Shown here in pieces: positions 2,104-32,754 of a stretch of 64,000 nt of DNA. Position 1 is the stretch's first letter. Every line of letters begins with the position of its first letter. The notes beneath the pieces are model-generated. The model did no database searches. It had not been told where the DNA came from and was given only the letters and a program-made list of their open reading frames with translations. Both the position numbers and the translations under genes were made by a program. Source of the stretch: Patescibacteria group bacterium (GTDB lineage: Bacteria; Patescibacteriota; Microgenomatia; 0-14-0-10-38-17); contig JBMNNJ010000001.1 in assembly GCA_050953885.1 (NCBI GenBank), positions 527,437 to 591,436 on the forward strand, given 5' to 3'.

Positions 2104-2417
2104 ACAAGGCAAGATACTAAGATACTGAGAGACACGATAAAGCAAATTCAAAAGTCAAAAGTCAAAAACAATAAATAAACTCAAATCGCAAAACGCAAAA
2201 CTCAAATCTACAACGCAAAACTTAAAACTTAAAAGACAAAAACAGAATTACAATTTAGAAATACAAATATTATTAAGCCCTAAAGTTTTTTAGTTTTGAG
2301 TTTTAACATGTAGTTTTGAGATTTGAGATTTGCGTTTTGAGTTTATTTTTCGTTTTCATTCGTGTCTTTTAATAATTTCTTAATTTCCTTTTTTTAACAA
2401 CTTAGCAATATAATTCT
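2104..2417. repeat. mosaic hairpin-forming intergenic repeat (contains 170-bp core element copy 1 at ~2177-2350)
   Basis: A-rich 'caaaagtcaaaa/aaactcaaat' arm, core 'gaaagacaaaaacagaattacaatttagaaatacaaatatta', then the complementary T-rich 'tttgagtttt' arm. Confidence 0.8.
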
Positions 2418-2795
2418 ATGTCCAATTATAATTTTCTTGCCCAAAGAGAAGTTCCTATTGCTCCCGATGGCGGGCTTTACGGACCTGGCCCCACAGCACC
2501 CACCACCTCCACCGGCCTAGGCGAAGGTATCGCTCATTTGATTTCCGTAGTTATCGGCCTCTTTACTTTAGTCGCCGGTCTTTGGTTTCTTTTTCAACTT
2601 ATTTTAGGCGGCTACGCTTATATGAGCGCCGGCGGCAACAAAGAAAAGGCGCAGGCTGCTAGTCAAAAAATTACCCAAGCTTTAATTGGCTTAGTGATTG
2701 TGGTTTTGGCTATCTTTATTATTAATCTCCTTGGCTATATTTTGGGCGTTGACTTCCTTGATATTATCGGGATTATCCAAAACTTAACTTTTTAA
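2418..2795 (+). CDS. T4SS pilin-like small membrane protein, paralog 3
   Basis: Motif 'GGYAYMSAGGNKEKAQAA...ALIGLVIVV'. Confidence 0.5.
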   Translation: MSNYNFLAQREVPIAPDGGLYGPGPTAPTTSTGLGEGIAHLISVVIGLFTLVAGLWFLFQLILGGYAYMSAGGNKEKAQAASQKITQALIGLVIVVLAIFIINLLGYILGVDFLDIIGIIQNLTF

Positions 2796-2804
2796 TATCC
2801 TAAG

Positions 2805-3140
2805 ATGAAACTGGCACAAGGCACAATATACAACCCTCTTCTACCCATAGAGCTTCAACAGCCACCGGCGCAGGCGCCAAATACTCTTCAGCATATTCTT
2901 TCCACCGCCATAACCCTGGCCTTAATTGGCGCCAGCGTTGTTTTTCTTTTTATTATCATCACCAGCGGCATTTCTTATATGACGGCGGGAGGAGATAAAG
3001 AAAAAAAGGTGGCCGCTTCTACCCGCCTTACCAATGGGGTTATCGGTTTGGCGATTGTTTTTTGCCTTTTTGCCTTTGCCCAACTTCTCTCTTCCCTTTT
3101 TGGCATCAATTTGTTAGAATTTACTATTCCCAGACTTTAA
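2805..3140 (+). CDS. T4SS pilin-like small membrane protein, paralog 4
   Basis: Motif 'SGISYMTAGGDKEKKVAA...GVIGLAIVF'. Confidence 0.5.
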   Translation: MKLAQGTIYNPLLPIELQQPPAQAPNTLQHILSTAITLALIGASVVFLFIIITSGISYMTAGGDKEKKVAASTRLTNGVIGLAIVFCLFAFAQLLSSLFGINLLEFTIPRL

Positions 3141-3158
3141 TTTTAAAATAAAAAGGAG

Positions 3159-3509
3159 GTGAAAAAAATGTTTAATGTTCTCGCTCAACAAGCAACCATC
3201 GACATTAATCCCGGAGAAGGATTTGAAGACATTGCCAACATTACCGTTGGTTCAATTTTAAGCGGCGCAATCCAATTGGTGTTAATCGTTGCCGCCCTTG
3301 TCTTTTTCTTTCTCTTAATTATCGGTGGTATCCGCTGGATGACGGCCGGAGGCGATAAGGAAAAAGCGGGCGCGGCTCGGGGCCAGCTCACCTCGGCTTT
3401 AATTGGCTTGGCAATTGTTTTTGCCGCTTGGGCTATTATCCGCTTAATCGAGGTTCTCTTCGGCGTTTCTATTATTAGCGGCTTTGAAATTCCCTCCTTT
3501 GTACCTTAA
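3159..3509 (+). CDS. T4SS pilin-like small membrane protein, paralog 5
   Basis: Motif 'GGIRWMTAGGDKEKAGAA...ALIGLAIVF'; perfect SD 'aaaggaggtg' 8 nt upstream. Confidence 0.55.
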   Translation: MKKMFNVLAQQATIDINPGEGFEDIANITVGSILSGAIQLVLIVAALVFFFLLIIGGIRWMTAGGDKEKAGAARGQLTSALIGLAIVFAAWAIIRLIEVLFGVSIISGFEIPSFVP

Positions 3510-3528
3510 TAACTTTTAAAACTTAAAA

Positions 3529-3903
3529 ATGTTATTAAAAAAGAAGGGGAGGAAAAAACAAGTGGCCGGACTTTTATTAGCGCAAGGTAGTGGGTGGCAG
3601 ACTAACGCTGATTATATCGCGGAAGGCGATGTGCCTACTATCTACGGCCTTGAGGCAATCGTGGCCAATATCCTCAATATTATTATCGGGTTGGCCGGGG
3701 TGGTTCTTTTGCTCATGCTAATAGGGGGTGGTTTTGGCTACATTACCTCTGGCGGTGATAAAGAAAAAGCGGCCAAGGCCAAAAACACCCTCACCTACGC
3801 CATTTTAGGCCTTTTGGTTATTTTGGGCGCTTGGCTAATTATCCGTTTAATCGAGGAATTTACCGGCTTAAATTTGCACATTTTCCAAATTCCCAAAATA
3901 TAA
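3529..3903 (+). CDS. T4SS pilin-like small membrane protein, paralog 6
   Basis: Motif 'GGFGYITSGGDKEKAAKA...AILGLLVIL'; stop overlaps the next start (TAATG). Confidence 0.5.
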   Translation: MLLKKKGRKKQVAGLLLAQGSGWQTNADYIAEGDVPTIYGLEAIVANILNIIIGLAGVVLLLMLIGGGFGYITSGGDKEKAAKAKNTLTYAILGLLVILGAWLIIRLIEEFTGLNLHIFQIPKI

Positions 3904-5900
3904 TGAAAAAGTTCCCCTTTGCCGTTAGCCTTTCCGTTTTTCTTTTCTTAGTGGCCGCAGAAGCTTGGGCAAATCCCCTTACTTATACTATTGAGTACCG
4001 AAACCGCAATATTTCTATTCCTGAAGAAAAGAAACAAGCGGTTATCAATCAAGCCCTAAAAAGTTGGCCAAATAGTAAAATTGAGATTAGCTGGGATTAT
4101 GTTTACAACAGCGCCATCAACCATAATTGGAATCCTGCTTTTGTTATTGCTCTCTGGATTGAAGAATCGGGAGCCAGCGGCGTTAGCGCTTATGATGTTG
4201 GTTGCTTAGGCGGATCACCCAATAATATTCCCAGCCAACTTAATTGCCTTTTTAGCCGCCCTTATGCTAACGAAACCTTCCGCACTTTTATGTGCAAATA
4301 TAGCGGAGAAAAAGAGGATTGCTACACCAATCCTAATTATAATTTTTTAAACAACCCCTATTTCCCTACCAACCTAGGCATTTGGTATTACCGGCTTGCC
4401 GGTAACGCCGGTCTGGGAGGTAGCGTTGGCGATGGCGGTGAGCCTACAGAACCGGGCGGCTCTTTTTATACCGAAGAAACAATTTTCTTAAAAGACAGCC
4501 TTGCCTCAAACGACCTTCTCCTCGACTACCGCTATTATCGCGAAGAAAGTCGCCCCACCCCCGCTCCTCCTCCCCCTAATATTTCTCCCGCCCCAAAAGT
4601 TCAGGGCGCTACAACAGAAAGAGGAACTAAATCGTTTGATGGGGAGTTAAATATCACCGAAGAGGGGAAAAACCTCCCTAATTTTAAAATAATGGAGGAA
4701 ACTTTATCTTTTTCTTTAGAAAGACTACTGCCGGAAAGTCTAAGAAAAGAATTATCAATTAATCCCCAAGAAATTAGCGGTAAGGCGCGGCACTTTGTCT
4801 ATGGCTTAAGCGAAAATGAAGGTAAGTTAGCGATCAATAGCGCCGCAGAAGGAATTCCCCGGGAAATTCCTGAAGAAAAAGCCGCCTTTCCCTCTTGGTG
4901 GGGCCAGCTGGTTGGGGAAAGCAAGGTAGTCTGCGGTCTTTTTAACACTTGCCCCGCCCCAGAAAGCCTTAAAATTAAAGTCGCCGCCGCTGACGAATAC
5001 AATCCTCCCGAAGGCCTCGGCCACCGAAACTCCTCTTCTTTGGTTGACGAAGAAAATCTTGATAACGAAGTCATTAGCTCTCACTTCACTATCATCAGCT
5101 TTTTTACCAGAATTATTGAGGAAATCACCGAATTCTTTGAATATTGGGGAGAAGTTCTTATCGCCAAAAAAGAAACCACCACTACCACCGCCTTAGCCGA
5201 AACACGGGCAATTGTCCCCGGCGGCGAGAATATCAGAGAAAACACTTCTTTTTTCAAAGGCTTCCTCCCCGCTTCGGCTATTCCTGCCCATCACAACTCG
5301 CCTCTAAAAGTAAGCGCCGATTATGAAGTTTCTTCAGGATACACCCTTATAGGAGAAGAGAAGCTGGAATATCATAATTTAGGCGCTACCCAAAGAAATT
5401 ATTGCTTGAGTCTTTGTTCACAATATCCAGCCGGCTTTAATATCAGCCAAATTGACCCCCTTTGCCCTTCTTGCCGTCCAGATGATTATCCTCTCGAAGG
5501 CTACGGCGATATTCCTTTAAGCAAAGAGCTGTGCCGATCCCCAAATGGGAAGATAAGACAAGAAGACGAAGAAGGAGAATGCCATTATTATGATCTCCCC
5601 AACGGAGCCAATGAGGGCTGTGAAGAAGGTCAGGATCCGGTTTGCGAAGGCGGGAGATGCAATCCTTATGAATTTTATACCGACGATTATATTAAAAAAT
5701 GCGGCACTACCCCTTGGTACGGAAGCTGTCGTGATGTTAATGTTTGCGAGTTGATGACCTTTGCTAAAAATCCCGCCGGCGGGTTTGGCGAATGCCAATA
5801 CGCCAACCCCACCGTTTGTGTTCGCACCGATCGTCTTAAGGTAGGCAAATGCGCTGCGGTTTGCAACTTGGCCTGTTGCGCGGAGCAGAAGAAAAAATAA
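3903..5900 (+). CDS. secreted cysteine-rich protein (start chosen at internal ATG 3903; signal peptide MKKFPFAVSLSVFLFLVAAEAWA)
   Basis: Signal peptide; about 30 Cys clustered in the C-terminal 180 aa; no known family. The ORF-track start at 3831 overlaps the previous gene. Confidence 0.45.
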   Translation: MKKFPFAVSLSVFLFLVAAEAWANPLTYTIEYRNRNISIPEEKKQAVINQALKSWPNSKIEISWDYVYNSAINHNWNPAFVIALWIEESGASGVSAYDVGCLGGSPNNIPSQLNCLFSRPYANETFRTFMCKYSGEKEDCYTNPNYNFLNNPYFPTNLGIWYYRLAGNAGLGGSVGDGGEPTEPGGSFYTEETIFLKDSLASNDLLLDYRYYREESRPTPAPPPPNISPAPKVQGATTERGTKSFDGELNITEEGKNLPNFKIMEETLSFSLERLLPESLRKELSINPQEISGKARHFVYGLSENEGKLAINSAAEGIPREIPEEKAAFPSWWGQLVGESKVVCGLFNTCPAPESLKIKVAAADEYNPPEGLGHRNSSSLVDEENLDNEVISSHFTIISFFTRIIEEITEFFEYWGEVLIAKKETTTTTALAETRAIVPGGENIRENTSFFKGFLPASAIPAHHNSPLKVSADYEVSSGYTLIGEEKLEYHNLGATQRNYCLSLCSQYPAGFNISQIDPLCPSCRPDDYPLEGYGDIPLSKELCRSPNGKIRQEDEEGECHYYDLPNGANEGCEEGQDPVCEGGRCNPYEFYTDDYIKKCGTTPWYGSCRDVNVCELMTFAKNPAGGFGECQYANPTVCVRTDRLKVGKCAAVCNLACCAEQKKK

Positions 5901-5919
5901 TTGCATTTTAAAAATTTTT

Positions 5920-7482
5920 GTGGTACTTTTAAACTATAAAAAGATGACCTTTTCTTTTTCTTGCAAACTTTCTTGCAAAAAACTATTTTTAGCTTTCTTT
6001 ATTTTTGGGACTGCTTTTCTTTTATTGGTCCCAAAAATAAAAGCGGTAAACGCTTATTACGAGCCGGGGACAGGCGGCGGGGTCGGCGGGAAAGTCGCTT
6101 CCTTTGAAGAAGCAGTTTACGAAACCAATGAATTTAACAACGAAAGCCATTCTTATGCCACCACCGAAAATATTATCCAAAGCCTCAACAATATGATTTT
6201 GGGTTGCGCCACTGAAACATGCGCAAATGCTTTAGCCTCAAAAGGTTTGCCTACCAACGGCGCCGTTGGCGCCGCCAGCGGCTTGATCGCCTCTCTTTAC
6301 GCCACCCCACCCGCCTCTTCTGCTTATTACTTGGCTGACTTGGGCCAGCGGCTTAATCTAACTCAATCGGTCTACGCCCAAGGAATCGGTTTTTCCGGCC
6401 TCAACCCTCTCTTGGATCTTTGGAAAGCGGCTCGCAACGTAGCCTACACTTTCTTTATTTTTGTCTTCCTAATTATTGGTTTTGCCATTATGTTTCGGGC
6501 CAAAATTAACCCCCAAACGGTGGTCACCATTCAAAGCGCCATCCCCAAGGCGGTGGTGGCCCTGATTTTGGTTACCTTTTCCTACGCCATCGCCGGGTTA
6601 ATGATTGATTTGATGTACCTCTCAATCGGTTTACTTTTTGGTCTTATCCCCGCTAATTTTAAAGCTTTTCTTCCTCATGGCAGCGATGTTACTCCTTATT
6701 ACACCGGCGGCTTTGGTGAGCTTATTCATAATGTTTGGGATGCCGGCTGGGGATCCTTCTGGAGAGTTCTTACCGAAGGTGTTGGTTGGACAGGACTAGG
6801 AGTTGATGCTGGCATAACAGGAATCGCTGCCGGTATCGCCGCACTGCTTTCCGGACCTACAGGCTGGGTTGCCCTAGCCACTGCCGTAGCTACCCCTATA
6901 CTATTAATATTCCTCGTCGCTATAATCGTTCTTTTCGCCACCGTCAAAATTTTTTGGGTGCTTTTGGTTTCTTATATCAACATCATCATTAGTATTTTGA
7001 TTGCCCCTATTCAGTTAATGCTTTCCGCCATCCCCGGCCAAAATACTTTTGGCCCCTGGATAAGCAATCTCTTAAAAAATATTCTTGTTTTTCCTGCCAC
7101 CGTCGGTATGTTTATTTTAGCCTTTATCCTCTCCGATCTTTCTAAAATAAGCGGTGATCAAAATCTTTGGGTGCCACCTCTTTTAGGTTTTTGGGGCGAA
7201 AAAACCAGTCAAGCAATCGGGGGGTTGTTAGGTTTTGGTATCATCTTGATGACCCCTAAAGTAGCTGATATAATCAAGAGTATGTTTGAGAAAAAGCCCT
7301 TCGCCGCCGGGACGGCGATAGGGGAAGCATTGGGACCGGCTAAGGGAATAGGAAAAGCCGCAGGATGGGTAGGGGTTAGTAGTGGCGCTGAAGCAATCAC
7401 GGCGGGCTGGAGTGGAGCAACGCAACCCCCAATAAAGAAGGGAGTCAGAACAATTCTCCAACGTACAAAAATAGTCCAATAA
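5920..7482 (+). CDS. polytopic membrane protein, VirB6/TrbL-like (contextual assignment)
   Basis: At least five long hydrophobic helices, Gly-rich loops, placed after the pilin genes in a T4SS-like locus. Confidence 0.4.
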   Translation: MVLLNYKKMTFSFSCKLSCKKLFLAFFIFGTAFLLLVPKIKAVNAYYEPGTGGGVGGKVASFEEAVYETNEFNNESHSYATTENIIQSLNNMILGCATETCANALASKGLPTNGAVGAASGLIASLYATPPASSAYYLADLGQRLNLTQSVYAQGIGFSGLNPLLDLWKAARNVAYTFFIFVFLIIGFAIMFRAKINPQTVVTIQSAIPKAVVALILVTFSYAIAGLMIDLMYLSIGLLFGLIPANFKAFLPHGSDVTPYYTGGFGELIHNVWDAGWGSFWRVLTEGVGWTGLGVDAGITGIAAGIAALLSGPTGWVALATAVATPILLIFLVAIIVLFATVKIFWVLLVSYINIIISILIAPIQLMLSAIPGQNTFGPWISNLLKNILVFPATVGMFILAFILSDLSKISGDQNLWVPPLLGFWGEKTSQAIGGLLGFGIILMTPKVADIIKSMFEKKPFAAGTAIGEALGPAKGIGKAAGWVGVSSGAEAITAGWSGATQPPIKKGVRTILQRTKIVQ

Positions 7483-7692
7483 TAGCATGCTCCAAAGAAC
7501 TAAAAAAGTCGCTGGAAAACTCCTTCTTTCTGCCATTTACAAAGAGGCGGCAAACCATTCAGCTAAAGGAAAAGAGCCGTGGAATACTGTAAGAAGACTG
7601 ACTAAAAAGAAAGCAGAACAAAAATAAGCCTACATTCATTAACGTAAATAAGCTTATTTTAACATCTCTTTCCCTCAAGACAAAACAATAAC

Positions 7693-9309
7693 TTATTTGT
7701 TCTTTCTCCCCTCATGTAGAGGAAGACATTCTTGTTTAGATAAGACATTTTGTATTGACTCCCATGCTTCACGAGAGTCAGAAAAAAATCCTGCCGTTTC
7801 ACAGGCCGCCTTCACATATTCAATAAGACCCTTAGAACTTCCTGCCCCCAAACTTTTAAGTAATCCATCTAAAATACCAGGAGCAACTACATCCGCTCTT
7901 CTATTTTTGCTTATTGTAGATGTTCCTAACGTTAACAATCTCCCTCCAATCAAATTTATTTTCAGTAATTTCTTTTCTTCATCATCCAAATCCCCCGTGC
8001 CTAATTGAATATCCTTATTAATCACCCTTAAGGCTTCAGGCGTTACTAATTCAGCCACCATATCTGGCAATTTATTTTCCCAAAAAATCTTTCTCACTCG
8101 ATTCTGCCTAAACATACAATAAAGCCAAGAGCTAAAGGCTGTTTCCGGAGTTTCTTTAAGTACATCCTTTAGGTTCTCCCCACCCATCCAGCGGTCAAAA
8201 ATAGATTTTTTTCCCCCTTTAGGCCCAACTTTGGTAGCATGCCAAAAATCAGTTGTTAAGCTGTCCGGAGCTGTCTGGGCCAAGACCGGTGGCCCTGCCG
8301 GTCTGCCCAGCCTTAAATCAGCTAAGGTCTTACCTCTAAAAAAGAAAAGTTTTATCAAATCAGATTGCTGCTCATTATAAAAAGTGCAATCTCCCTCTGG
8401 CTTTTCCCCTCTTTTATCCTTCTCGCCTCCCAACCAAACAGACAAGAGTGTTACTGTTGCCAAATGTTTGGCTAAAATAACCGCTCTCTTAGCTACAAAA
8501 GAATTCACACCTTCCTCGACTAATTGTTTCTCCAACATTTCCGCAAATTTCCTTCTCTCTTCTTCAGTGGAATCTTTTTCTTGTAGAATCTTAGTAAAAG
8601 TCGTTTCTATTTTTCTCCCCGCCGGTGTTTTTAATTCAACCCCAAGGTGTATATCTATTATAAGTCTCAATGCCCTCTCTGTCGCTGGACCATAATCGGG
8701 AGTTTCCAACAAATCTTTCATCATTGAAGGAGGCAAAGTCTCCAAATACGATGCACTTAAAAAAAGTCTTTCTGCATAAGTATCAACATCGCTTTCCAGG
8801 GGAGACCGTTGGGCAAAAACATTTTGAAGTCTAATCGCCGCTTCTACTTGATGAAGCACTTTCCCCCATTCTTCAGCTTCTTCTTCATTTTTTCTTTTCC
8901 TTTCTCCCTCACTCCCCATGCCTTCTCCTTTACTTTCTTCCCCAAAGGGTTGGCGTTGATATTTTCTAAGATAAGACTCTGGCAAACCGCCTATTCCCTG
9001 AAGGTGAATAGAAAATTTATCAGAATAAGCTCTCCTATTTAAAGCGTCAATAACCGGACGCACCGACCATGGCTCTATCGCCTCTGGTTTTTTCTCGTTG
9101 CTTTCTCTTGGAAATAACAGCTCAAAAATAATCACTTCTCTCCCGCCTTGTGGCGCAACTTCGGGATTACTAAGCATCTCCGCTATCCCCACCGATAACT
9201 CTCGCAACTTCATTTGCTCCTGCGTTAGCGCCTCTGGCCAACCAAGTTCCCCCTGGTTTACCTCTTCCGACGGTCTTCCTCCTGGTCTTTCTCCTTCAAC
9301 TCCTAGCAT
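7693..9309 (-). CDS. hypothetical cytoplasmic protein (acidic, no TM)
   Basis: Long ORF antisense to the T4SS-like genes; no recognisable motif. Confidence 0.5.
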   Translation of the reverse strand: MLGVEGERPGGRPSEEVNQGELGWPEALTQEQMKLRELSVGIAEMLSNPEVAPQGGREVIIFELLFPRESNEKKPEAIEPWSVRPVIDALNRRAYSDKFSIHLQGIGGLPESYLRKYQRQPFGEESKGEGMGSEGERKRKNEEEAEEWGKVLHQVEAAIRLQNVFAQRSPLESDVDTYAERLFLSASYLETLPPSMMKDLLETPDYGPATERALRLIIDIHLGVELKTPAGRKIETTFTKILQEKDSTEEERRKFAEMLEKQLVEEGVNSFVAKRAVILAKHLATVTLLSVWLGGEKDKRGEKPEGDCTFYNEQQSDLIKLFFFRGKTLADLRLGRPAGPPVLAQTAPDSLTTDFWHATKVGPKGGKKSIFDRWMGGENLKDVLKETPETAFSSWLYCMFRQNRVRKIFWENKLPDMVAELVTPEALRVINKDIQLGTGDLDDEEKKLLKINLIGGRLLTLGTSTISKNRRADVVAPGILDGLLKSLGAGSSKGLIEYVKAACETAGFFSDSREAWESIQNVLSKQECLPLHEGRKNK

Positions 9310-9416
9310 ATTTAACCTAGCAATAATTACTTATTTAAATAAATTCTACCATATTAAATATTTTCTCTCTAAAACCATTATATCACATTAAATTAATCAA
9401 TTTTTCCTATCACAGA

Positions 9417-11348
9417 CTACTGAATATCTAATCTTTCTCTTGCAAAAGCACCTCTTTTTTCAAGATAACCTAACGGGTGCTCTTTTAGTAAACTCTCAAA
9501 TACTAATCTATCCGTCACCCCAAATGGAGACGTTATTCCCCTCTTTTCCGGATTTCTCACCCCACCATAACCAGCATAAACTGCCCACACTTTCAAATTA
9601 TGAAAATGTCTTATTGCCGTCTCCTTCGAACTACCCCTCTCTTCGTAATATTCCTCAAGATTCCTTTCTAGTCTCAAAGTCCTGAAAATATCAAGAAGGG
9701 GTACAACCCACTCTCCTATTTTTTCTTCTCTCAAGGGCCTACCAGGGCTAAAGTATTCCAACAGTTCCACTGCTTCCTTCGAGATAAGAAAAAAATGATC
9801 TTCACTTGTAAGATTGCTCTGTGTTCTACTCCAGTCGATTTTTTCTTTTCTAAGCAATCTTTCCAATAAGCTTACTTTTCCTTGACTATCATCACTGTAA
9901 GTTTCCCAAAAACTTTTCATTGTGGTAACAGGATAACATTCTGGCACATAAATTAAAATTTTCCCTTTTTTTCCCTCAACCTCATAACGCCAAAACTGAG
10001 AAGGAGAGTTCGCCCCCTTAAATATAAAATCTTCTGCTTCCTTTCCCGTTTCCTTTTTTATTCTCTCAATCTGCAATACTCCCCACTTACCAAAAGCTCC
10101 CCACTCAAAACCATTTGCGCACTCATCTTCAAATCTTTCTTGAGGATGATAAACAGTCCGCAGGGCTTCGGAACACAACGCCGGAACCCAAGCATGCCGT
10201 TCTCTCAAATCCCTAGGGCCTTGCAAAGAGTATCGGCTATCAACTGACTCTATCAAGTTACTACACCATATCCAATTCCAGGCAATAGCATCAGCACTCT
10301 TAACCTTAATTCTAAGTTTTTGCCTTTCTTCCTCGCTCATTTGGCTTTCCATTTCCCGAGAAACACCAAAAACACTTCTTGCCAAATAATCCTGCAGTTT
10401 TTTCCTAAACTCATTAAGCTCCGCTCCTGATTCGCATTCTACTAAACAAAACTCTTCTTCCTCGCCACTCCCTTTATCTACAATCTTAGTCGTGCCATTT
10501 ATAATTTCATCAGCGTACCATTCCAAAGACTGCTTTACTCCCTCAATATTGTAAAGCCTTTCTGCCTGTTCAACCGTGTTTGTCAATTGTATCCAATCTA
10601 AATCTTCCGTCAACTCCTTTGGAGATGCATAATGTACTTTCTTCCAATAAGCCGCTCTGGCTAATTGCCAACGGGCATCCCAATCCCTACGCTCCTCAGA
10701 AGAAGCCTCTATATAAAACCGTGGCTCCATATTAGGAGTAAAACGCGTGTAAAAATCTTGTTGAAGCTCCACATCAACCCAACGCTCTTTCTCTTCTTCA
10801 GGAGGCAATTGAGAGTAGGCTTCTCTTGTTCTTTCATTATAACCAATAGCCATTTTTATTAAGTTTTCGGTGCTTTCTTGATTTTTTTGGGTTGACTTAA
10901 TTGTTTCTTCTTGTAAATCTTTCATTCTTCCCATAAATTTATCTAAACCGCTTAACTTTATCTCCGTGGGCATAGCCTTTTGGTTTACTTCTCCCCCCTC
11001 TTCTGACAATTCCTGCTCCCTTAATAATCTTTCCCTTTCCTCACCAAGCTCTCCGGCTAAAACCGACCATTCATCTTCAGGCACTTGCTCGTCAAGGCAC
11101 CAATCATCGCCTTTCCCTAAAAGTTTCCCCAAACCTTCCGGGGTTTGGTTGCGAGATTCCAACGCCAGCCGGCCTAAGCGTTGGAGCTTCTCGTTTCTGA
11201 TTGCCGCCTCTTGCAAAACTTTTTCTTCCTCGTCTTTTTTTGGCTCTATTAAACCCCGTAACCTTTCTTCAAAAGAAGGTTGCCTTGCCTGCTCTGCCGA
11301 TAATGGTCTTTCCTGTTCTGGTGTGGGCATAATTTCTCTTTCAACCAT
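9417..11348 (-). CDS. hypothetical cytoplasmic protein (Glu/Arg/Trp-rich)
   Basis: Long ORF; no recognisable motif. Confidence 0.5.
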   Translation of the reverse strand: MVEREIMPTPEQERPLSAEQARQPSFEERLRGLIEPKKDEEEKVLQEAAIRNEKLQRLGRLALESRNQTPEGLGKLLGKGDDWCLDEQVPEDEWSVLAGELGEERERLLREQELSEEGGEVNQKAMPTEIKLSGLDKFMGRMKDLQEETIKSTQKNQESTENLIKMAIGYNERTREAYSQLPPEEEKERWVDVELQQDFYTRFTPNMEPRFYIEASSEERRDWDARWQLARAAYWKKVHYASPKELTEDLDWIQLTNTVEQAERLYNIEGVKQSLEWYADEIINGTTKIVDKGSGEEEEFCLVECESGAELNEFRKKLQDYLARSVFGVSREMESQMSEEERQKLRIKVKSADAIAWNWIWCSNLIESVDSRYSLQGPRDLRERHAWVPALCSEALRTVYHPQERFEDECANGFEWGAFGKWGVLQIERIKKETGKEAEDFIFKGANSPSQFWRYEVEGKKGKILIYVPECYPVTTMKSFWETYSDDSQGKVSLLERLLRKEKIDWSRTQSNLTSEDHFFLISKEAVELLEYFSPGRPLREEKIGEWVVPLLDIFRTLRLERNLEEYYEERGSSKETAIRHFHNLKVWAVYAGYGGVRNPEKRGITSPFGVTDRLVFESLLKEHPLGYLEKRGAFARERLDIQ

Positions 11349-11687
11349 ATTGGTTTAGCTATAACAAACTTGGCCCGATTTTAGCAAAAAATATAGGAAA
11401 AAACAAGCTCGGCCCTTGCGCAGTTTCTTAGTTTGTTGTAAGCTAGAATTGTTTAAAGTTAAAAGTCAAAATTCAAAATGCAAAAAGTTAGCAACTCGCA
11501 ACTGGTAACCAGTAACTCGTAATAAGAAGCCAAGATTAAATAACAAAGAGTAAAATGCAAAACCAAGCCAAGAATTAAAAATGTCTTTGAATTTTGATTT
11601 AGGTTTTAATCTTTGCGCTTTGCTCTTTGCGCTTTTTTTATTACCTATTACGGACTACTGATTTTGACTTTTGAATTTTGAATTTTT
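11349..11687. repeat. mosaic hairpin-forming intergenic repeat
   Basis: Arms 'aaagtcaaaattcaaaatgcaaaa ... ttttgacttttgaattttgaattttt', with modules 'gttagcaactcgcaactggtaaccagtaactcgtaataagaa' and 'tttgatttaggttttaatctttgcgctttg'. Confidence 0.8.
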
Positions 11688-12533
11688 ATGGAACAGCATC
11701 CTATTCCTCAACACATTTCCTCCTATGAGTTTCGCCTTATCGGCGAGATGACGCTAGGACAGTTTGCCCGTGTGGCCGGCGGGGTTATCGTTGGTTTGCT
11801 TTTCTACGCTCTTCCTTTACCCGGTTTTATCAAGTGGTTCCTTGTTTTTCTTGCGGTGGGAGGAGGAGCAGCTTTTGCTTTTTTTCCCATTGAGGGCCGC
11901 CCCTTGGAAACCTGGATTTTGGCCTTCTTAAAATCAATTTATTCTCCCACCCAGTATGTCTGGCGAAAAAGCGTCGCCTCTTTTGACTTTCAAACCCGAA
12001 CGCCCTCTGCCGAAGAAGCCCTTCCTCCTTCCCCAGCCACAAAAACCCTTACCCCTCAAGAGTTGGCTCTTTTGCGCACTTTTGGACAGAAAGATACCGA
12101 TTTTTATAGTGAAGAGGAAATTAAAAAAGCCCAGGCGCTTCTTGCTCTTTATCAGCAACCCACCAAAGTAACCCCTCCTCCCCCCCCGGCGGGGGTTAAA
12201 AAAGAAGAAAAGGCCAAAGAGACTCGCTTTGAGGAAAACCTGCCTTTTCCCGCCCCGCCGGAAGAGCCGAATATTATCGTCGGTATGGTGATTGACAAAA
12301 ACGGCAAGATTGTGGAAGGAGCAATTATTGAGATCAAAAACCAAGAAGGGGAAACGATGCGGGCAATGAGAAGCAACAAGTTGGGTCAGTTTCGCACTGT
12401 TTCTCCTTTAGGTGATGGCGAATACCAAATTTCCTGCGAAAAAGAAGGACTTAATTTTGATATAATGAAAATTAAACTTGAAGGGAAAATCCTTCCACCT
12501 ATTGAAATAAGAGAAAAGCCATCGGCTCTATAG
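11688..12533 (+). CDS. PrgI/VirB3-like membrane protein with C-terminal carboxypeptidase-regulatory-like beta domain
   Basis: N-terminus 'IPQHISSYEFRLIGEMTLGQF' plus two TM helices resembles the PrgI family. C-terminus 'IIVGMVIDKNGKIVEGAIIEIKN...GQFRT' resembles the CarbopepD_reg fold. Sits directly upstream of VirB4. Confidence 0.4.
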   Translation: MEQHPIPQHISSYEFRLIGEMTLGQFARVAGGVIVGLLFYALPLPGFIKWFLVFLAVGGGAAFAFFPIEGRPLETWILAFLKSIYSPTQYVWRKSVASFDFQTRTPSAEEALPPSPATKTLTPQELALLRTFGQKDTDFYSEEEIKKAQALLALYQQPTKVTPPPPPAGVKKEEKAKETRFEENLPFPAPPEEPNIIVGMVIDKNGKIVEGAIIEIKNQEGETMRAMRSNKLGQFRTVSPLGDGEYQISCEKEGLNFDIMKIKLEGKILPPIEIREKPSAL

Positions 12534-12566
12534 GATCTATTAACCCTATATCAAATTTTTCAAAAA

Positions 12567-13337: not shown

Positions 13338-13798
13338 AGTCAAAAATCAAAATTTAAAAGTTTATCCGCCAGCTGGCGGATAAAATTCAAAATGAAAATG
13401 TAAAAAGTAAAAAGTTAGTAACTCGTAACTGGTAACCAGTAACTCGTAATAAGAAATCAAGATTAAATAGCAAATATCAAAATGCAAAACCAAGTTCAAA
13501 GACCAAAACTATAAATTAAATCTCAAAACGCAAATGACAAACTGCTCTGCCGGCAAGGCAGGTCTACATGGCAAATGTTAAAACTTTTTAAAGCTTAAGG
13601 TTATTTTTTTAGATTTTAGTTTTGAGTTGTAGTTTTGAGTTTTGACATTTGAGATTTAAGTTTATTTATTGTTTTTGAATTTTGATTTAGGTTCTAATCT
13701 TTGCGCTTTGCGTTTTACGCTTTTTTATTACTTATTACGAGTTACATATTACGGATTACTGATTTTTAATTTTGACTTTTGAATTTTGAATTTTTTTC
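13338..13798. repeat. mosaic hairpin-forming repeat lying between the two VirB4 halves
   Basis: Contains all modules: 'caaaa' arms, 'ccgccagctggcgg', the 'aactggtaaccagt' module, 'tgccggcaaggcagg', and ends 'ttttgaattttgaatttttttcATG'. Confidence 0.8.
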
Positions 13799-15631: not shown

Positions 15632-15651
15632 GAAATTAAAAATTCGGTTTT

Positions 15652-19763: not shown

Positions 19764-19765
19764 TT

Positions 19766-21552: not shown

Positions 21553-22893
21553 TTAAATATTCAACTCCTTTCTTATTTTCACCACCCGATGACGGACGGT
21601 TTCATTGGTGGTAAATTCCTGATTAATTTTTTCAATCGCATGGATAACGGTGCTGTGGTCGCGGTTTCCCAAAAGCTCGCCAATTTTCATTAGCGGCAAA
21701 TTTAGGTCTTTTCTTAAAAGATACATGGCAATATGGCGGGCATTGACTAATTCTTTTTGGCGGCTTTTCCCGCAAAGGTCGCGGATTTTAAAAGAAAATT
21801 CCTTGGCGGTTTGGGAAAGCACTTTGCGGGGGGTAATTTTTTGGACCGTTTTTTGGGCTCGGCCGTAAAACTTACTGGCAAAATCCAAGGTCAGGGCTGT
21901 ATTTTCCGCCAGAGCGCGGGTTTTAAGTTGTAAAAGAGCGCCTTCAAGTTCACGGGCATTGCTTTCAATGGTTTGGGCTAAAAAGGAAAGCACTTCTTCG
22001 GGAACAGTAAAGCCCTTTTCCCCGGCCTTTTGCTTTAAAATTGCCAAGCGCATTTCATAGTCCGGAGACTGGATGTCAACGGTGAGGCCGCCCATGAAAC
22101 GGGAGGTAAGACGGTTTTCTAAGGGTTGGATTTCCTCGGGGCGGCGGTCGGAGGTTAAAACCACCTGCCGGCCAGCCAGATAAAGGAAATTAAAGGTATG
22201 GAAAAATTCCTCTTGGGAATATTCTTTGCCGGCAATAAATTGGACATCATCAATAAGTAAAACATCCACTTGGCGATATTTTTTTTTGAAATTGGTGATG
22301 GTTTTACTCTGGAGGGCGGCGACTAATTCGTTGGTAAAAGTTTCCGCGGTTGCGTAGAGGATGTTTAAGTCGGGATGTTTTTCGGCAATGGCATTGCCAA
22401 TGGCCTGAACTAAATGGGTTTTGCCCACTCCCACTCCTCCCCAGACAAAAAAGGGGTTATAGGCCTGGCCCGGGTTTTCCACGATCGCTTGGGCGGCGGC
22501 ATGGGCAAAATTATTGGAAGAGCCAACCACAAAGGAAGAAAAATTATAATAAGGAAGCAGGCCGGTTTTTGGGTTAAAACCTTCTTTTCTTTCTTTTTTT
22601 TCAAAAAGTGGCCCCATTTTTTCCGGTGTTTTTTTGGGCCGCTGGTTAATGGTAAAAACAAGACTGTTTTTTTCTCCGGTTTGGCGATCTAAGATTTCTT
22701 TAATTAAAGAATAATAGCGGCCCTCTACCAGTTCCTGAAGATAGGCGCTGGGACAACCGATGGTGGCAACATTATTTTCAAGCGATAAAAGTTGGATGGA
22801 GGAAAGAAGGGCCTGATAATTGGTTTTGGAAACGGCAATTTTCAACTCTTCCTGGACGTTTTCCCAAAGGGCGTTTTGATTCATTTTTTCCAA
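21553..22893 (-). CDS. dnaA: chromosomal replication initiator DnaA
   Basis: Walker A 'GGVGVGKTHL'; 'LLIDDVQFIAGKE'; C-terminal DnaA-box-binding HTH 'HSTVIHAIEKI'. A further box 'ttttccacaa' lies upstream at ~22945. Confidence 0.9.
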   Translation of the reverse strand: MEKMNQNALWENVQEELKIAVSKTNYQALLSSIQLLSLENNVATIGCPSAYLQELVEGRYYSLIKEILDRQTGEKNSLVFTINQRPKKTPEKMGPLFEKKERKEGFNPKTGLLPYYNFSSFVVGSSNNFAHAAAQAIVENPGQAYNPFFVWGGVGVGKTHLVQAIGNAIAEKHPDLNILYATAETFTNELVAALQSKTITNFKKKYRQVDVLLIDDVQFIAGKEYSQEEFFHTFNFLYLAGRQVVLTSDRRPEEIQPLENRLTSRFMGGLTVDIQSPDYEMRLAILKQKAGEKGFTVPEEVLSFLAQTIESNARELEGALLQLKTRALAENTALTLDFASKFYGRAQKTVQKITPRKVLSQTAKEFSFKIRDLCGKSRQKELVNARHIAMYLLRKDLNLPLMKIGELLGNRDHSTVIHAIEKINQEFTTNETVRHRVVKIRKELNI

Positions 22894-23006
22894 AATAGGC
22901 AGGAGGCTTAAGAAGGCAGGACTCTTTTAATAATAGCGAAGTTTTCCACAATTTGCAAGGGGCGGATCTATGTATCCGTCCGTTTTGATTTACAAACCCC
23001 AAAGAA

Positions 23007-23336: not shown

Positions 23337-23691
23337 AAGAAAAAATTGTTAAAATACGCGAATGAAAACGAATAAAATTCAAAACGCAAAATTAAAAATC
23401 AGTAATCCGTAATATGCAACAAAAAAAGCGCAAAAAGCAAAGTGCAAAGATTAGAACCTAAATTAAAATTCAAAGATATTTTTAATTCTTGGCTTTGGTC
23501 TTTGAGCTTGGTTTTGCATTTTACTCTTTGCACTTTAATCTTGTTTTCTCACGAGTTACTAACTTTTTACTTTTTACATTTTCATTTTGATTTTATCCGC
23601 CAGCTGGAAGATTCGTCAGAATGACGAATCGCCTTGCGCATTACGAACCGCATACATTATACCTAATATTAGATATAAAATACAACCTTGC
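23337..23691. repeat. mosaic hairpin-forming intergenic repeat (inverted arrangement of the 11.4-kb modules, plus half of the 'ccgccagctgg' palindrome)
   Basis: 'cagtaatccgtaatatgc...gcaaagattagaacctaaat...cacgagttactaacttttt'. Confidence 0.75.
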
Positions 23692-24615: not shown

Positions 24616-25063
24616 AGCAAAAAAGGGGAAATTTTGGTAGGATTAAGATAGTCAAAAATCACAAGATCACAAGATCATAAAATCACAAGAGCATGAAATC
24701 ATGAAATCAAAAGAGCAAAAGAACAAAAGGCAACTGCTAAAATTATTGGCGCGGATTGAATAATCCATAATGGGTAATAAAAATCGCAAAGCGCAAATAT
24801 CAAAAATTAGAACCTAAATCAAAGTTCAAAAACAAAAGATAAACTCAAACCTCAAAACTCAAAACTCAAATCTACAACGCAAAACTTAAAACTTGAAAGA
24901 CAAAAACAGAATTACAATTTAGAAATACAAATATTAAGCCCTAAAGTTTTTTAGTTTTAAGTTTTAACATGTAGTTTTGCCATTTGCGTTTTGAGATTTG
25001 AGTTTATTTTTCGTGTCCATTCGTTTCTTATTCGCGCATTTTAGCTATTTATCTTACCACAAA
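24616..25063. repeat. mosaic intergenic repeat containing 170-bp core element copy 2 (~24841-25012)
   Basis: Same core 'gaaagacaaaaacagaattacaatttagaaatacaaatattaagccctaaag' with complementary arms. Confidence 0.8.
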
Positions 25064-26764: not shown

Positions 26765-26989
26765 AGTATAATATAGTCAAAAGTCAAAAATACACGAATT
26801 AAAACGAATTAGAAACGAATGAACACGAATGAGCGAATAATGTCATCCTGATGAAAATCAGGATCTGTCTTAATACTTACCAAAAACAGATTCTGTCCAC
26901 CAGCTGGCGGATTAACTTTTAATTTTTAAATTTTAGTTATAAGGATTAAGGAATAATTATAATTCTTATCAAAGATACCGTTAATCTTT
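26765..26989. repeat. mosaic intergenic repeat ('acacgaattaaaacgaat' module, 'atcctgatgaaaatcaggat' hairpin, 'ccaccagctggcgg')
   Basis: Shared modules with 20.9-kb and 61.3-kb regions. Confidence 0.7.
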
Positions 26990-27652
26990 ATGCCCGATCT
27001 TTATACCGCCTCGCCAAACACAAAAGTAGAAGCGCCCCAAAAAGAGGAAGAAAAAAAGCCAACAGCCAAAGTTCGTGTTTCCCCTTTCAAGAAAATTGTC
27101 AGCCAAAATCTTTCTCCAAAATGGGGGTTGGCCGTTAACCCTAAAAAGATTAAATTTGCCAGTCAGGAAAAGGATGAAGAAGTTTTGCTTTTAATCCGCC
27201 GCCACCCGATTACCAATTTACCTTGGGCGCTTGCTTTGGTTTTAATGATTTTTGCCCTGCCGGCCGCTTTTCATTTTCAGTGGCTGGCGCCTCTTCCTTC
27301 CAACTTTCAAATGGTGGTTGCCTTTGCTTGGCTGGCGCTGGCGTTGGCAATTTTTTGGGGCGGGTTTTTAAGCTGGTTTTTTAATGTTAATATTGTTTCC
27401 AGCAGAAGGGTAATTGATATTGATTTTTATAATCTTATTTATCGGGAGGTAACTGATGCGGAGGTGGAGAAAATTCAGGATGTCACCCATAAAATGGGCG
27501 GAATTTTTGGGTTAGTTTTCAATTATGGCGACGTGGTGATTCAAACCGCTGGCACCAAGCCGGAGATTGAGTTTTTAAAAGTTCCTCGGCCGGCGCAAAT
27601 CGCCGCGGTTTTACGCCAGATTAGAGAGGAAGCAGAGAAGGAGATAGGGTAA
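26990..27652 (+). CDS. membrane protein with bacterial PH (YdbS/bPH_2-like) domain
   Basis: Two TM helices followed by 'SSRRVIDIDF...GDVVIQTAG'. Confidence 0.35.
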   Translation: MPDLYTASPNTKVEAPQKEEEKKPTAKVRVSPFKKIVSQNLSPKWGLAVNPKKIKFASQEKDEEVLLLIRRHPITNLPWALALVLMIFALPAAFHFQWLAPLPSNFQMVVAFAWLALALAIFWGGFLSWFFNVNIVSSRRVIDIDFYNLIYREVTDAEVEKIQDVTHKMGGIFGLVFNYGDVVIQTAGTKPEIEFLKVPRPAQIAAVLRQIREEAEKEIG

Positions 27653-27790
27653 AGGCACTAAGATATTAAGAGACACGATAAAAAAATTCAAAATTTAAAA
27701 TTCAAAAGTCAAAAGTGCAAGTTAAAATTCAAAAGCAAAGCAAAAAAATTTTTAACTTTTAACTTGCAATTTTAAATTTATCAGATTTCT

Positions 27791-28030
27791 ATGGATAACC
27801 CCCAAAATTTGCTTAAATTATTTCAGGACTTTTCTCTTTGGTCGGTTTGGCGTGTTTTTCTTTTGGTCTATTTTTTAGGCTATTTAATTTTTAATCTTAT
27901 TTTAGGACGGCAAATCACCTTAATGAGTCAGCTTTTTGAGACAAACTTGAAAGGCTTGCTTAAAATTTTTAACTGGTTGCTTTTTGGTTTGGGGGTTTTG
28001 GGTTTTTTAATGGCTTTAACTTTGGGGTAA
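27791..28030 (+). CDS. small membrane protein, hypothetical
   Basis: 79 aa with two hydrophobic helices. Confidence 0.3.
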   Translation: MDNPQNLLKLFQDFSLWSVWRVFLLVYFLGYLIFNLILGRQITLMSQLFETNLKGLLKIFNWLLFGLGVLGFLMALTLG

Positions 28031-28084
28031 AAAGCGCCGGAGCGCGAGTTTTGGAAAAAAGAGGTGTTTATGATATGCTTTTAA

Positions 28085-29860: not shown

Positions 29861-30174
29861 AGAGACTAAGAGACTAAGATACTAAGATACACGATAAAAC
29901 AAATTCAAAATTCAAGATTCAAAAACAATAAATAAACTCAAATGTTAAATCGCAAAACGCAAAACTACAACTCAAATCTTAAAACTTGAAAGACAAAAAC
30001 AGAATTACAATTTAGAAATACAAATATTAATCCCTAAAGTTTTTTAGTTTTGAGTTTTAACATGTAGTTTTGCCATTTGCGTTTTGAGTTTTGAGATTAT
30101 CTTTCGTTTTCTCTTCGTGTCAATTTGTGTCTTCTAATAATTTAGCAATTTAACAGTTTGACAATTTAATTTTT
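29861..30174. repeat. mosaic intergenic repeat containing 170-bp core element copy 3 (~29931-30105)
   Basis: 'gatactaagat' module then the core with complementary arms. Confidence 0.8.
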
Positions 30175-30541: not shown

Positions 30542-30712
30542 AAAAATCGCCCTATGGGCGAGGAATTTCGAATTACAAATCACAAATTCCAAACAAATTC
30601 TAAATTCTAATTTTCAAATTTAAAAAAATGGATTACATTTCATTCGCTCATTCGTGTTTATTCGTTTCCCATTCGCGTCTTTTAACAATGAAACAATATG
30701 GCAATGTAATTT

Positions 30713-31114: not shown

Positions 31115-31299
31115 GATAAAAAACTCAAAACTTAAATCTAAAAAAAAACAACTTTAAGCTTTAAAAAGTTTTAACATTTGCCATGTAGATTTGAGATTTG
31201 CGATTTAAGTTTGCCATTAAACTGTCAACCATTTGTTATTTTTTTATTTCTTCGTGTTGTTTATCTTTGTCTCGTGCTTATATTATACTTTATCTACCG
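31115..31299. repeat. mosaic intergenic repeat fragment
   Basis: 'gccatgtagatttgagatttgcgatttaagtttgcc' module. Confidence 0.55.
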
Positions 31300-31998
31300 A
31301 TGCCTTTTTCTTTACTTGATATTTTCTATCCCCGTCATTGTTTGTTTTGCGGCCGGAAGGGCAGTTTTTTCTGTCCCGATTGCTTTTCAAAAAAGCCCTT
31401 GATCCCTTTCCAAATCTGTCCTATTTGCCAGCGGCCTAGTTTTTCCGGCCAAACTCACCCTTCCTGCCAAACAAAATTTAATTTAAACGGCCTGATCAGT
31501 CTTTTCTCCTACCCCCCTTTTTCCTCGGCAATTAAAAAAATAAAGTATCGGCCTTATTATTTTGCCGCCATAGAAGAACTGATGGTAAGGGTGGGCCCCA
31601 TTTTAAAAAACGAGGCAAGTTTTGGGCGATGGCGGCGATTTATCAAGGAGTGGCCGGCGGTGGTGGTTCCCTTGCCCTTGGCGGCGGGTCGGGAAAAAGA
31701 GCGGGGTTTTAATCAGGCCGAACTAATGGGCCGATTTTTGGCCTCTTTTTTCAAGCTTCCCTTTGATAATCATCTTCTTTGGCGGGTAAAAGAAACCTGG
31801 CCGCAATCTTTATTAAGCAAGAAGGAAAGAAAAGAAAACGTTAAAAACGCTTTTGCGGTTTTGCCGGGGAAACGTTGCCCCCAGGCGGTACTTTTGGTGG
31901 ATGATGTTTGGACCAGCGGTGCCAGTCTTAAGAATGCCGCCTCTGCCTTGAAACATCACGGCGCTTCCTTGGTTTGGGGCCTCACTCTTTGCCGGTAA
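31300..31998 (+). CDS. comFC: ComF family protein (ComFC-like phosphoribosyltransferase; DNA uptake)
   Basis: N-terminal double zinc finger 'CLFCG...CPDC...CPICQ...HPSCQ'; C-terminal PRTase 'VLLVDDVWTSGASL'. Start moved to the internal ATG at 31300. Confidence 0.7.
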   Translation: MPFSLLDIFYPRHCLFCGRKGSFFCPDCFSKKPLIPFQICPICQRPSFSGQTHPSCQTKFNLNGLISLFSYPPFSSAIKKIKYRPYYFAAIEELMVRVGPILKNEASFGRWRRFIKEWPAVVVPLPLAAGREKERGFNQAELMGRFLASFFKLPFDNHLLWRVKETWPQSLLSKKERKENVKNAFAVLPGKRCPQAVLLVDDVWTSGASLKNAASALKHHGASLVWGLTLCR

Positions 31999-31999
31999 G

Positions 32000-32073
32000 T
32001 GCGCCTGGCCGGATTTGAACCGGCACTTTTTGGCTCCGGAGGCCAACGCTTTATCCAGTTAAGCTACAGGCGC
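32000..32073 (-). tRNA. tRNA-Arg (anticodon CCG)
   Basis: Cloverleaf: acceptor GCGCCUG/CAGGCGC, anticodon loop CUCCGGA, T-arm GCCGG-UUCAAAU-CCGGC. Confidence 0.8.
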
Positions 32074-32078
32074 GAAAG

Positions 32079-32166
32079 CGGAGGGAGGGAGATTCGAACT
32101 CCCGTGGGCCGTAGGGCCCGCAAGGTTTTCGAGACCTGCCAGATAAGCCACTCCTGCATCCCTCCA
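32079..32166 (-). tRNA. type-II tRNA with long variable arm, probably Ser (anticodon CGA)
   Basis: Acceptor GGAGGGA/UCCCUCC, T-arm GGGAG-UUCGAAU-CUCCC, variable arm GGGCC-CUAC-GGCCC, loop CUCGAAA; anticodon-stem folding partly ambiguous. Confidence 0.55.
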
Positions 32167-32263
32167 AAGCAAGATACTAAGGGACTAAGATACTAAGAAA
32201 TAAGAATAAAATTTTTCTTCTCCCCGGGTTTCTTTGTATCGGGTATCTTTGTATTTTACCTAG

Positions 32264-32337
32264 TGCGCCTGGGGCGATTTGAACGCCCAACCGCCAGCTC
32301 CGCAAGCTGATGCTCTATCCAGTTAAGCTACAGGCGC
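32264..32337 (-). tRNA. tRNA-Arg (anticodon reads GCG)
   Basis: Acceptor GCGCCUG/CAGGCGC, anticodon arm UCAGC-UUGCGGA-GCUGG, T-arm GGGCG-UUCAAAU-CGCCC. Confidence 0.7.
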
Positions 32338-32754
32338 AAAAGAAAAGTTAAAAGTTAATCCGCCAGCTGGCGGATTAAAAATCAAAAATCTAGCGCAAAG
32401 CGCAAAGATTAAAACGCAAAACCAAGCTCAAAGACCAAAACCATAAACTGAATCTCAAAACGCAGATGGCAAGCTTAAATCTCAAAACTACATGTTAAAA
32501 CTCAAAACTAAAAAACTTTAGGGCTTAATATTTGTATTTCTAAATTGTAATTCTGTTTTTGTCTTTCAAGTTTTGAGTTTTGCGTTGTAGTTTTGCGTTT
32601 TGCGATTTGAGATTTGAGTTTATTTATTATTTTTGAACTTTGATTTAGGTTTTGATCTTTGATATTTGCACTTTGCGTTTTTTTATTACGAATTTTGCGT
32701 ATCTTTCTTATTATATCAAACCTCACTTGCAAAACGCCAAAAGTTTGTTATACA
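32338..32754. repeat. mosaic intergenic repeat containing an inverted copy (copy 4, ~32471-32630) of the 170-bp core element and 'taatccgccagctggcggatta'
   Basis: Reverse complement of the core 'taatatttgtatttctaaattgtaattctgtttttgtctttc'. Confidence 0.8.

Follow-up and report, generated by a model that had tools for sequence, protein, structure and literature searches.

We analysed a 64-kb stretch of a Candidatus Shapirobacteria genome (candidate phyla radiation, CPR, or Patescibacteria), hereafter called the window, in which an element of ~165 bp is repeated. This element, named core A here, is a dispersed, hairpin-forming, non-coding DNA repeat, and it is situated in a lineage-specific mosaic of intergenic hairpin modules. 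Closely related strains differ in their modules, which turn over fast, and within a genome modules are copied from one site to another. We consider it fairly likely, with a probability of roughly 60%, that core A is one family of lineage-specific, non-coding, hairpin-forming DNA repeats in an uncultured lineage of anaerobic digesters, and that it is passed on as a cassette, probably through recombination at flanking modules common to the sites. At the DNA level it behaves like a selfish or neutral repeat, and not as an RNA gene. An earlier reading of this stretch, made from the sequence alone and without database searches (the sequence-only reading), had offered two explanations, a small structured RNA or a recently active MITE (miniature inverted-repeat transposable element), of which the MITE is closer to the truth.

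Copies and structure of core A

Copies were searched with two blocks from the centre of the element, allowing up to 3 mismatches and using 100 shuffles as control. The 38-nucleotide (nt) block GACAAAAACAGAATTACAATTTAGAAATACAAATATTA was found at exactly four sites, 2235-2272, 24899-24936 and 29992-30029 on the plus strand and 32526-32563 on the minus strand, and the 39-nt block CCTAAAGTTTTTTAGTTTTGAGTTTTAACATGTAGTTTT was found at four sites with 0-1 mismatch, against an expectation of 0 matches for either block. The limits of the full copies were set by a profile built from all copies. Copy 1 (2178..2343, plus strand; centre 2235-2317, with a 3-nt TTA insertion) lies between two genes resembling pilins of the type IV secretion system (T4SS). 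Copy 2 (24842..25004, plus strand; centre 24899-24978) is in the divergent intergenic region between a pilin-domain gene on the minus strand and a SpoIID-like gene on the plus strand, and copy 3 (29935..30097, plus strand; centre 29992-30071) is in the convergent region between a gene of 591 amino acids (aa) and the 3′ end of transfer-messenger RNA (tmRNA). The inverted copy 4 (32452..32620, minus strand; centre 32484-32563) is located between tRNA-Arg(gcg) and a plus-strand gene. The block searches and the profile thus confirmed what had been described from the sequence, namely three direct copies and one inverted copy with a near-identical, non-palindromic centre; the coordinates given at that time were correct within a few bases, except that the inverted copy is ~20 nt longer and reaches 32452. 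With respect to the replication origin the copies show no polarity, copies 1-3 being on the plus strand on both sides of it.

Core A is built as an imperfect A-rich/T-rich hairpin around a non-palindromic, A-rich centre of ~50 nt. The complementary arms, already recognized in the sequence-only reading, are 67-70 nt long with 76-81% complementarity, and the ends of the element form an imperfect inverted repeat, AAACTCAAA.../...TTTGAGTTT. The energy of the DNA fold was -32.5 kcal/mol (z = -5.8 compared with shuffles). The left boundary, (A/G)AACTCAAA, is rather sharp in every flank class, and copies vary in their right boundary and in how many units they have.

Autocorrelation of the arms showed a peak at a period of 7 (0.67 versus 0.17-0.42 at other periods), and changes were limited to 3 variable nucleotides per unit, the A-runs being invariant. 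According to the alignment of the copies, the arms differ by swaps of whole unit types (ACT, ACG, TCG, TGG or TGT before the invariant AAA), by altered numbers of units, and by interruption or replacement by a GC-rich palindrome. Conservation is higher in the centre than in the arms, as the sequence had suggested: among 15 intact copies, the mean pairwise identity was 98% in the unpaired centre and 96% in the inner hairpin, compared with 80% in the outer arms. Since the metagenome copies among them were recruited via a 22-mer in the centre, part of this contrast is inflated; the same contrast was observed in the four window copies, which are free of this recruitment bias.

The open reading frame (ORF) at 32508-32732 on the minus strand had been described as spurious, and it is; its 74-aa translation is of low complexity and rich in K, Q and N. 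The public annotation nevertheless calls the ORF of copy 4 a 72-aa gene (L104 4389-4607; L numbers denote loci outside the window). The same source of annotation also calls a 43-aa “gene” within tmRNA (L104 6578-6709).

Intergenic regions as mosaics of nested hairpins

What the sequence-only reading overlooked is that core A is just one part of a far more extensive mosaic, in which intergenic hairpins are nested in each other. Between 2 and 36 kb of the window, nearly all intergenic regions of >100 nt fold as a long hairpin with an A-rich left arm and a T-rich right arm. The arms are arrays of 7-8-nt units (CAAAACT/CAAAACG/CAAATCG, AAAGTCA, ACACGAAT and GATACTAA), and the regions reuse common modules in differing combinations and nesting orders. 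Repeated 14-mer blocks concentrate in the hairpin-bearing intergenic regions and amount to 4.3 kb in the first 36 kb, of which the hairpin regions make up ~10% as estimated by eye.

The whole intergenic cassette around copy 1 (2104..2417, plus strand, 314 nt) consists, from outside to inside, of GATACTAAGA units, ACACGAT, AAAGTCAAAA units, core A and ATTCGTGTC units, and the 314-nt cassette around copy 3 (29861..30174, plus strand) is its paralogue. Copy 4 is enclosed by an outer hairpin, “O” (32380..32694; arms 32380-32475 and 32621-32694), which is also found at 13448-13736 with a different inner element. This outer hairpin occurs in three states: without an inner element (~11500-11690 and 23340-23550), with the sister hairpin core B inside (13380-13800), and with core A inside (32338-32700). 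At copy 2, half of an “O” arm is present on one side only (24779..24841), and the sequence at 24779-24985 is 92% complementary to that at 32477-32683. The one-sided half-arm indicates mosaic construction.

Besides that of core A, at least three other types of centre recur. Core B (13520..13662, with a second copy at 31122-31212) has heptamer-unit arms of the same kind as core A and an inner stem of CTACA...TGTAG, and its centre is shorter and different. The core C hairpin family is made of AAAGTCAAAA units (35153..35272, with more copies at 20950-21026 and 27685-27779), and a fourth type of centre is found at 11565-11686 and 23374-23495.

The GC-rich 16-nt palindrome TCCGCCAGCTGGCGGA (32359..32374) is a separate small dispersed repeat, with 5 copies in the window (the others at 13365-13380, 26896-26911, 21027-21042 and 23596-23611) compared with 0.17 expected. 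In the metagenome copies of core A at L003, L006, L010, L015 and L019, it interrupts or replaces the arms at differing positions. This palindrome scores as terminator-like directly upstream of tRNA-Arg. It also bears resemblance to DnaA boxes; the actual DnaA-box cluster is that of TTTTCCACA at 21480-21530.

Arrays of the 8-nt units GATACTAA/GAGACTAA (2104-2145, 27644-27683, 29861-29899, 32171-32210 and 61750-61813) begin right after the stop codons of plus-strand genes, and they are retained at the orthologous sites of relatives despite the differing inner hairpin. These arrays may be a functional 3′-end module. A further conserved sequence, (A/T)ATATAATT(C/G)TATG, was found directly before the pilin start codon (2395-2420; orthologues at L019, L120, L121 and L125), where a perfect TATAAT is positioned 3 nt before the pilin ATG, too near for a normal -10 box of that start. 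The motif TTTAGCAAT...TTTAA, as found before the pilin start, also adjoins the 3′ end of tmRNA (30135-30170).

Comparison of orthologous and paralogous sites

The sites of copies 1, 3 and 4 were compared with those of relatives, using SmpB and pilin homologues as anchors. The copy-3 site holds core A both in the window and in L115/L116, whose flanks are 93% identical; L110-L114 (94-95%) have another mosaic there, L119 (85%) a core-C-type hairpin with the GC palindrome, and L024 (~80%) yet another hairpin. At the copy-4 site, where the window has core A, L110 has a 124-nt hairpin of GTAACTCGTAAC units and L024 a core-B-like hairpin. At the copy-1 site, L120 and L125 have core-C hairpins, L121 a large unrelated mosaic and L127 a core-B-like hairpin in place of the core A of the window; L019 has core A upstream of the pilin orthologue, where the left flank differs and the right arm is replaced. 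At all the compared sites the sequence adjacent to the genes was kept, with GATACTAAGA units following the stop codon and ATTCGTGTC...TTTAGCAAT preceding the next gene, and the interior of the intergenic region was exchanged. Wherever core A sits at the copy-1 site, the resident core-C hairpin is without its inner part and right arm, indicating that the site has the look of a replacement rather than of a simple insertion.

Whole intergenic regions resembled each other more at paralogous than at orthologous sites. The paralogous cassettes at 2104-2417 and 29861-30174, which are 28 kb apart, showed 84% identity over the full length, versus 47-56% for the copy-1 intergenic region and its own orthologues, and 47-60% for the orthologous intergenic comparisons overall. 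The exception was the copy-3 region of the window (W3) and L115, both with core A, which showed 92% identity. The length of the flank common to pairs of copies varied (314, 207, 170 and 121 nt), and this variation fits conversion tracts or composite duplication, of which it is more typical than of a unit with fixed ends.

Another difference between relatives was observed near these sites. From tRNA-Arg(ccg) to the DZR_2 gene, L110 (1051-2825; also L111-L113), 94-95% identical to the window, has an extra segment of ~1.8 kb, and the window is without that segment, the corresponding point being 31998/31999. The 435-aa protein encoded by this segment in the L110 group was considered as a mobile-element protein and rejected; it is a multi-pass membrane protein with a signal peptide, and no transposase.

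Distribution outside the window

An exact 22-mer from the centre of core A was used as the search key. It gave 0 matches in 185,579 GTDB species (one genome each) and 0 in viral contigs. Among metagenomes it was found on 23 contigs, mostly from anaerobic digesters, 22 of which contain real copies; the 23rd, L012, is a chance match and not core A. The centre was essentially invariant in the alignment of these copies, and clustering of the flanks gave ~20 distinct contexts. The neighbouring genes, named by reading translations with no family search, look housekeeping (pgk, radA, relA/spoT, aspS and recA). When 80 loci of GTDB relatives were searched with the profile, similarity was found only at the level of the arms, in the closest species, and long hairpins were rare in ~78 more distant relatives. 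The absence of the 22-mer, the arm-level similarity and the rarity of hairpins in distant relatives together indicate that the core-A family is young and narrowly distributed.

Four pairs of loci have one flank in common and differ in the other, L019 and L021 being among these loci. Identity or similarity to the window on one side only was observed at L021, L004/L009 and L002/L003, with a switch to unrelated sequence at or near the repeat, and in L105 (3386-3964) the switch is inside the 591-aa gene, corresponding to 29776 of the window. Such one-sided switches are either real rearrangements or chimeras of metagenome assembly.

Core A as a possible RNA

The proposal of a small structured RNA with a conserved loop was not supported by Rfam, covariation, strand-specific folding, promoter and terminator scans, or synteny. 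At the gathering thresholds of Rfam, the matches were tmRNA and tRNAs only and none was to core A; with E up to 10, only hairpins of plant microRNA (miRNA) precursors appeared (23 bits versus a cutoff of 200), a score that is the expectation for any long hairpin. The covariation term of RNAalifold was -0.68 kcal/mol, with nearly all pairs invariant. Only 3 of 43 pairs had a few double changes, and about an equal number were broken. Pairing of each arm with its own partner was not significantly better than pairing across copies (9.93 versus 9.71 pairs at variable positions, permutation p = 0.22). Folding as RNA showed no strand asymmetry (mean -41.5 kcal/mol for each strand, Wilcoxon p = 0.83), indicating that the palindrome is a DNA-level property.

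The scan of the copy-2 region gave 0 sites resembling a sigma-70 promoter or an intrinsic terminator in or at core A. The best hexamers in copy 2, TTGAAA and TACAAT, were rejected by eye as a sigma-70 promoter, the spacing being just 14 nt. The sigma-70-like match that ranked second in 20-36 kb, at 30096-30123 on the minus strand (11/12; TTGACA, 16-nt spacer, GATAAT), is situated in the flank to the right of copy 3 and directed into core A; it probably arose by chance in the ATTCGTGTC module. Syntenic conservation failed as well, core A being absent at the orthologous sites of L024, L110-L114, L119, L120, L125 and L127. It is shared with L115/L116 at the copy-3 site, and the copy of L019 is upstream of the orthologue of the gene downstream of copy 1.

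Mode of spread

The following mechanism is the one we favor. Each intergenic region is a nested palindrome put together from a common stock of modules, with A-rich unit arrays mirrored by T-rich ones. Core A, one of the inner modules, is an inverted repeat with a 7-nt period that surrounds its unique, A-rich centre (~50 nt), and it would move between intergenic regions as a cassette. The spread would most likely proceed via gene-conversion-type recombination or template switching during replication, and the shared outer modules would supply the homology for the exchange; cut-and-paste transposition seems a less likely route. The arms would diverge quickly because their units are exchangeable with many similar units elsewhere, whereas the unique centre would stay near-identical because other core-A copies would be its sole templates. 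The contrast between centre and arms would then have a neutral explanation that needs no selection.

Several points weigh against this mechanism. The rather sharp left boundary in all flank classes is the expectation for a discrete transposable unit. The locus pairs with one common flank may not reflect real rearrangements but chimeric assembly at the repeat. The sequence examined comprises 64 kb of genome and short metagenome contigs, and a transposase may be encoded elsewhere. In addition, the window and L019 share 97-99% identity in the centre and only ~78-85% in the adjacent coding sequence, so that purifying selection on the centre is possible. To explain this, the centre must have evolved in concert, have arrived recently and independently, or be under purifying selection, and in a multi-copy family either of the first two accounts for it as well as selection does.

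The chief competing explanation is classical transposition, driven by a transposase that was not seen. Core A would then be a classical non-autonomous MITE, mobilized in trans by a transposase elsewhere and using the apex of AT-rich palindromes as target, which would lead to nested insertion. We consider this unlikely, while ranking it before the other alternatives. Much about core A fits the recently active MITE of the sequence-only reading. Core A is non-coding, of suitable size (~165 bp) and bounded by inverted-repeat termini with a sharp left boundary; its 4 window and 22 metagenome copies occupy ~20 different flanks, strains whose flanks are 93-95% identical differ in whether they have it, it is nested within an outer hairpin that is also found without it, and short-read contigs (L106, L108 and L109) terminate within its copies. 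However, target-site duplications (TSDs), expected for such an element, were found at no copy boundary, where the only direct repeat is a non-significant “AT” and the flanks carry on the palindrome. Clean empty sites were not found at the orthologous sites of relatives either; the sites without core A hold other hairpin modules, and those with core A have lost part of the hairpin that is resident there. No transposase was detected among 30 window ORFs scanned against Pfam, nor among the ORFs flanking the metagenome copies, for which translations were read with no family search. The variable right boundary and unit number are also against a unit of this type.

Alternatively, the centre, carried in a hairpin, may be under purifying selection as a small or cis-regulatory RNA or as a site of protein binding that was recruited beside highly expressed genes such as those of pilins, tmRNA and tRNAs. 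The identity of 98% among copies, compared with 80% for the outer arms, and the identity to L019 described above would agree with such a function, as would the start of a co-oriented gene ~90-160 nt downstream of core A in ~10-11 of the 15 scorable copies. Nevertheless, we judge a functional centre to be improbable. Besides the lack of an Rfam family, of covariation, of strand asymmetry in folding and of promoter- or terminator-like sites, core A is absent from close relatives that retain the same flanking genes. Its contexts include co-directional, divergent and convergent genes, and the orientation bias relative to the flanking genes is weak and non-significant (4 to 1 among informative co-directional contexts). 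Moreover, a terminator-like palindrome is situated between copy 4 and the tRNA.

The nested modules might also constitute a dedicated, lineage-specific system of exchangeable cassettes, with recombination or mobilization directed by hairpins or cruciforms and the centre of core A serving as a recognition site or as a selected non-coding RNA or protein-binding sequence. We attach just as little probability to such a system, the alternative to which is passive junk homogenized by gene conversion.

Finally, a structure beneficial to the host, similar to REP or BIME and acting as a terminator or insulator, a 3′-end mRNA stabilizer, or a nucleoid or topoisomerase site, in which the hairpin matters and the centre is incidental, is very improbable: core A is always intergenic with a strong hairpin, and the outer modules (GATACTAAGA after stops, ATTCGTGTC before starts) persist while the inner modules change, but hairpins are also found in four divergent promoter regions, where a terminator is needless, canonical terminators with a GC-rich stem and T-run are present separately in the same regions (for example, 30547-30561), core A fails the terminator pattern with copies 2 and 4 between divergent genes, and the inner module is fully replaceable, which disfavors a specific role of core A.

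Relation to known repeats

Bacterial MITE-like repeats include BOX, RUP and SPRITE of Streptococcus pneumoniae and Correia of Neisseria, which are 100-200 bp long and are either modular (boxA-boxB(n)-boxC) or bounded by inverted repeats. Core A is similar to them in being intergenic and hairpin-forming, in its variable internal units, and in causing spurious ORF calls and assembly breaks. Correia and RUP have defined terminal repeats that match known insertion sequence (IS) families, as well as TSDs (TA for Correia), whereas neither IS-matching terminal repeats nor TSDs were found for core A. None of these four families is known to have arms of 7-nt unit arrays nested several levels deep.

In Drosophila and other eukaryotes, foldback (FB) transposons have a unique central loop between long inverted arms, each arm consisting of short units in tandem array. 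Core A resembles them in having unit-array arms around a unique centre and an arm length that varies via the number of units. Foldback transposons are, however, eukaryotic, kilobase-scale and transposase-linked, unlike core A, and the resemblance is of form only. A family related to foldback transposons has been described (PMC3169594).

The palindromic repeats REP and BIME are found in Enterobacteria and Pseudomonas, and include the REPINs mobilized by RAYT (PMC2817692, PMC3116915, PMC3333891, PMC3733652). Core A shares with REP and BIME the high copy number, the strictly intergenic location, the palindromes and the mosaics of a few motifs, the variability among strains, and the occurrence as targets or neighbors of other repeats. 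On the other hand, REP sequences are 20-40 bp, GC-rich, tagged by GTAG or CGTC and associated with RAYT, while core A is ~165 bp, AT-rich and untagged, with a unique centre of ~50 nt; no gene for RAYT, a Y1 transposase, was present among the 30 window ORFs scanned against Pfam. The palindrome TCCGCCAGCTGGCGGA is REP-like in size, yet it is also without the GTAG/CGTC tag. Because core A differs from REP in size, GC content and tag, and is without the TSDs that define a MITE, no named family was assigned; it is best read as a new MITE/BIME-like family among the bacterial dispersed palindromic repeats at large.

Full-text literature searches found no relevant description of comparable repeats in CPR bacteria. 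The genomes of CPR/Patescibacteria are regarded as small and streamlined. In the present case, about a tenth of the 36-kb origin-proximal region is occupied by nested palindromic repeats, which differ between strains with 93-95% identical genes, and the core-A family is a natural case for the persistence and spread of long palindromes in a minimal genome. In practice, hairpin repeats of this kind break short-read assemblies, with chimeric joins possible, and yield spurious gene calls such as the 72-aa “gene” in copy 4. They could also act as sensitive strain markers in digester communities.

Genomic setting of the window

The closest species-level reference to the window was a metagenome-assembled genome of Candidatus Shapirobacteria from a sludge digester (L024), with 84% identity of DnaG. 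The window is the replication-origin region of the genome, as indicated by dnaA (21553-22893, minus strand) and dnaN (19766-20893, minus strand), by the minimum of the cumulative GC skew at ~21 kb, and by the cluster of three DnaA-box-like TTTTCCACA sites at 21480-21530. Two of the boxes, 21501-21509 and 21522-21530, are the ends of a perfect inverted pair, TTGTGGAAAACTAAAAATTTAGTTTTCCACAA (21500-21531), and a further box-like site is located at 22942. The window also carries tmRNA, smpB, four tRNAs and several pilin paralogues, the latter in a CPR-type T4SS-like gene cluster (1735-19062).

This cluster begins with five tandem pilin-sized ORFs of ~110-125 aa (1735-3903), and both of those scanned (1735-2103 and 2418-2795) matched T4SS_pilin. 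It also encodes a PrgI-like protein (11688-12533), a TraG P-loop/AAA_10 ATPase that is possibly VirB4-like (13799-15631), and a CHAP-domain protein of 1136 aa (15652-19062). The gene of the CHAP-domain protein contains an internal direct repeat of 254 nt (16069-16322 and 16699-16952, 91% identical). A small, stand-alone protein of 124 aa with a GIY-YIG nuclease domain is encoded at 36540-36991, directly upstream of tRNA-Asn. A direct repeat of 109 nt, 79% identical, is found in two intergenic regions (40056-40164 and 41904-42012) of the second half of the window, which otherwise has few hairpin modules and GC-richer spacers.

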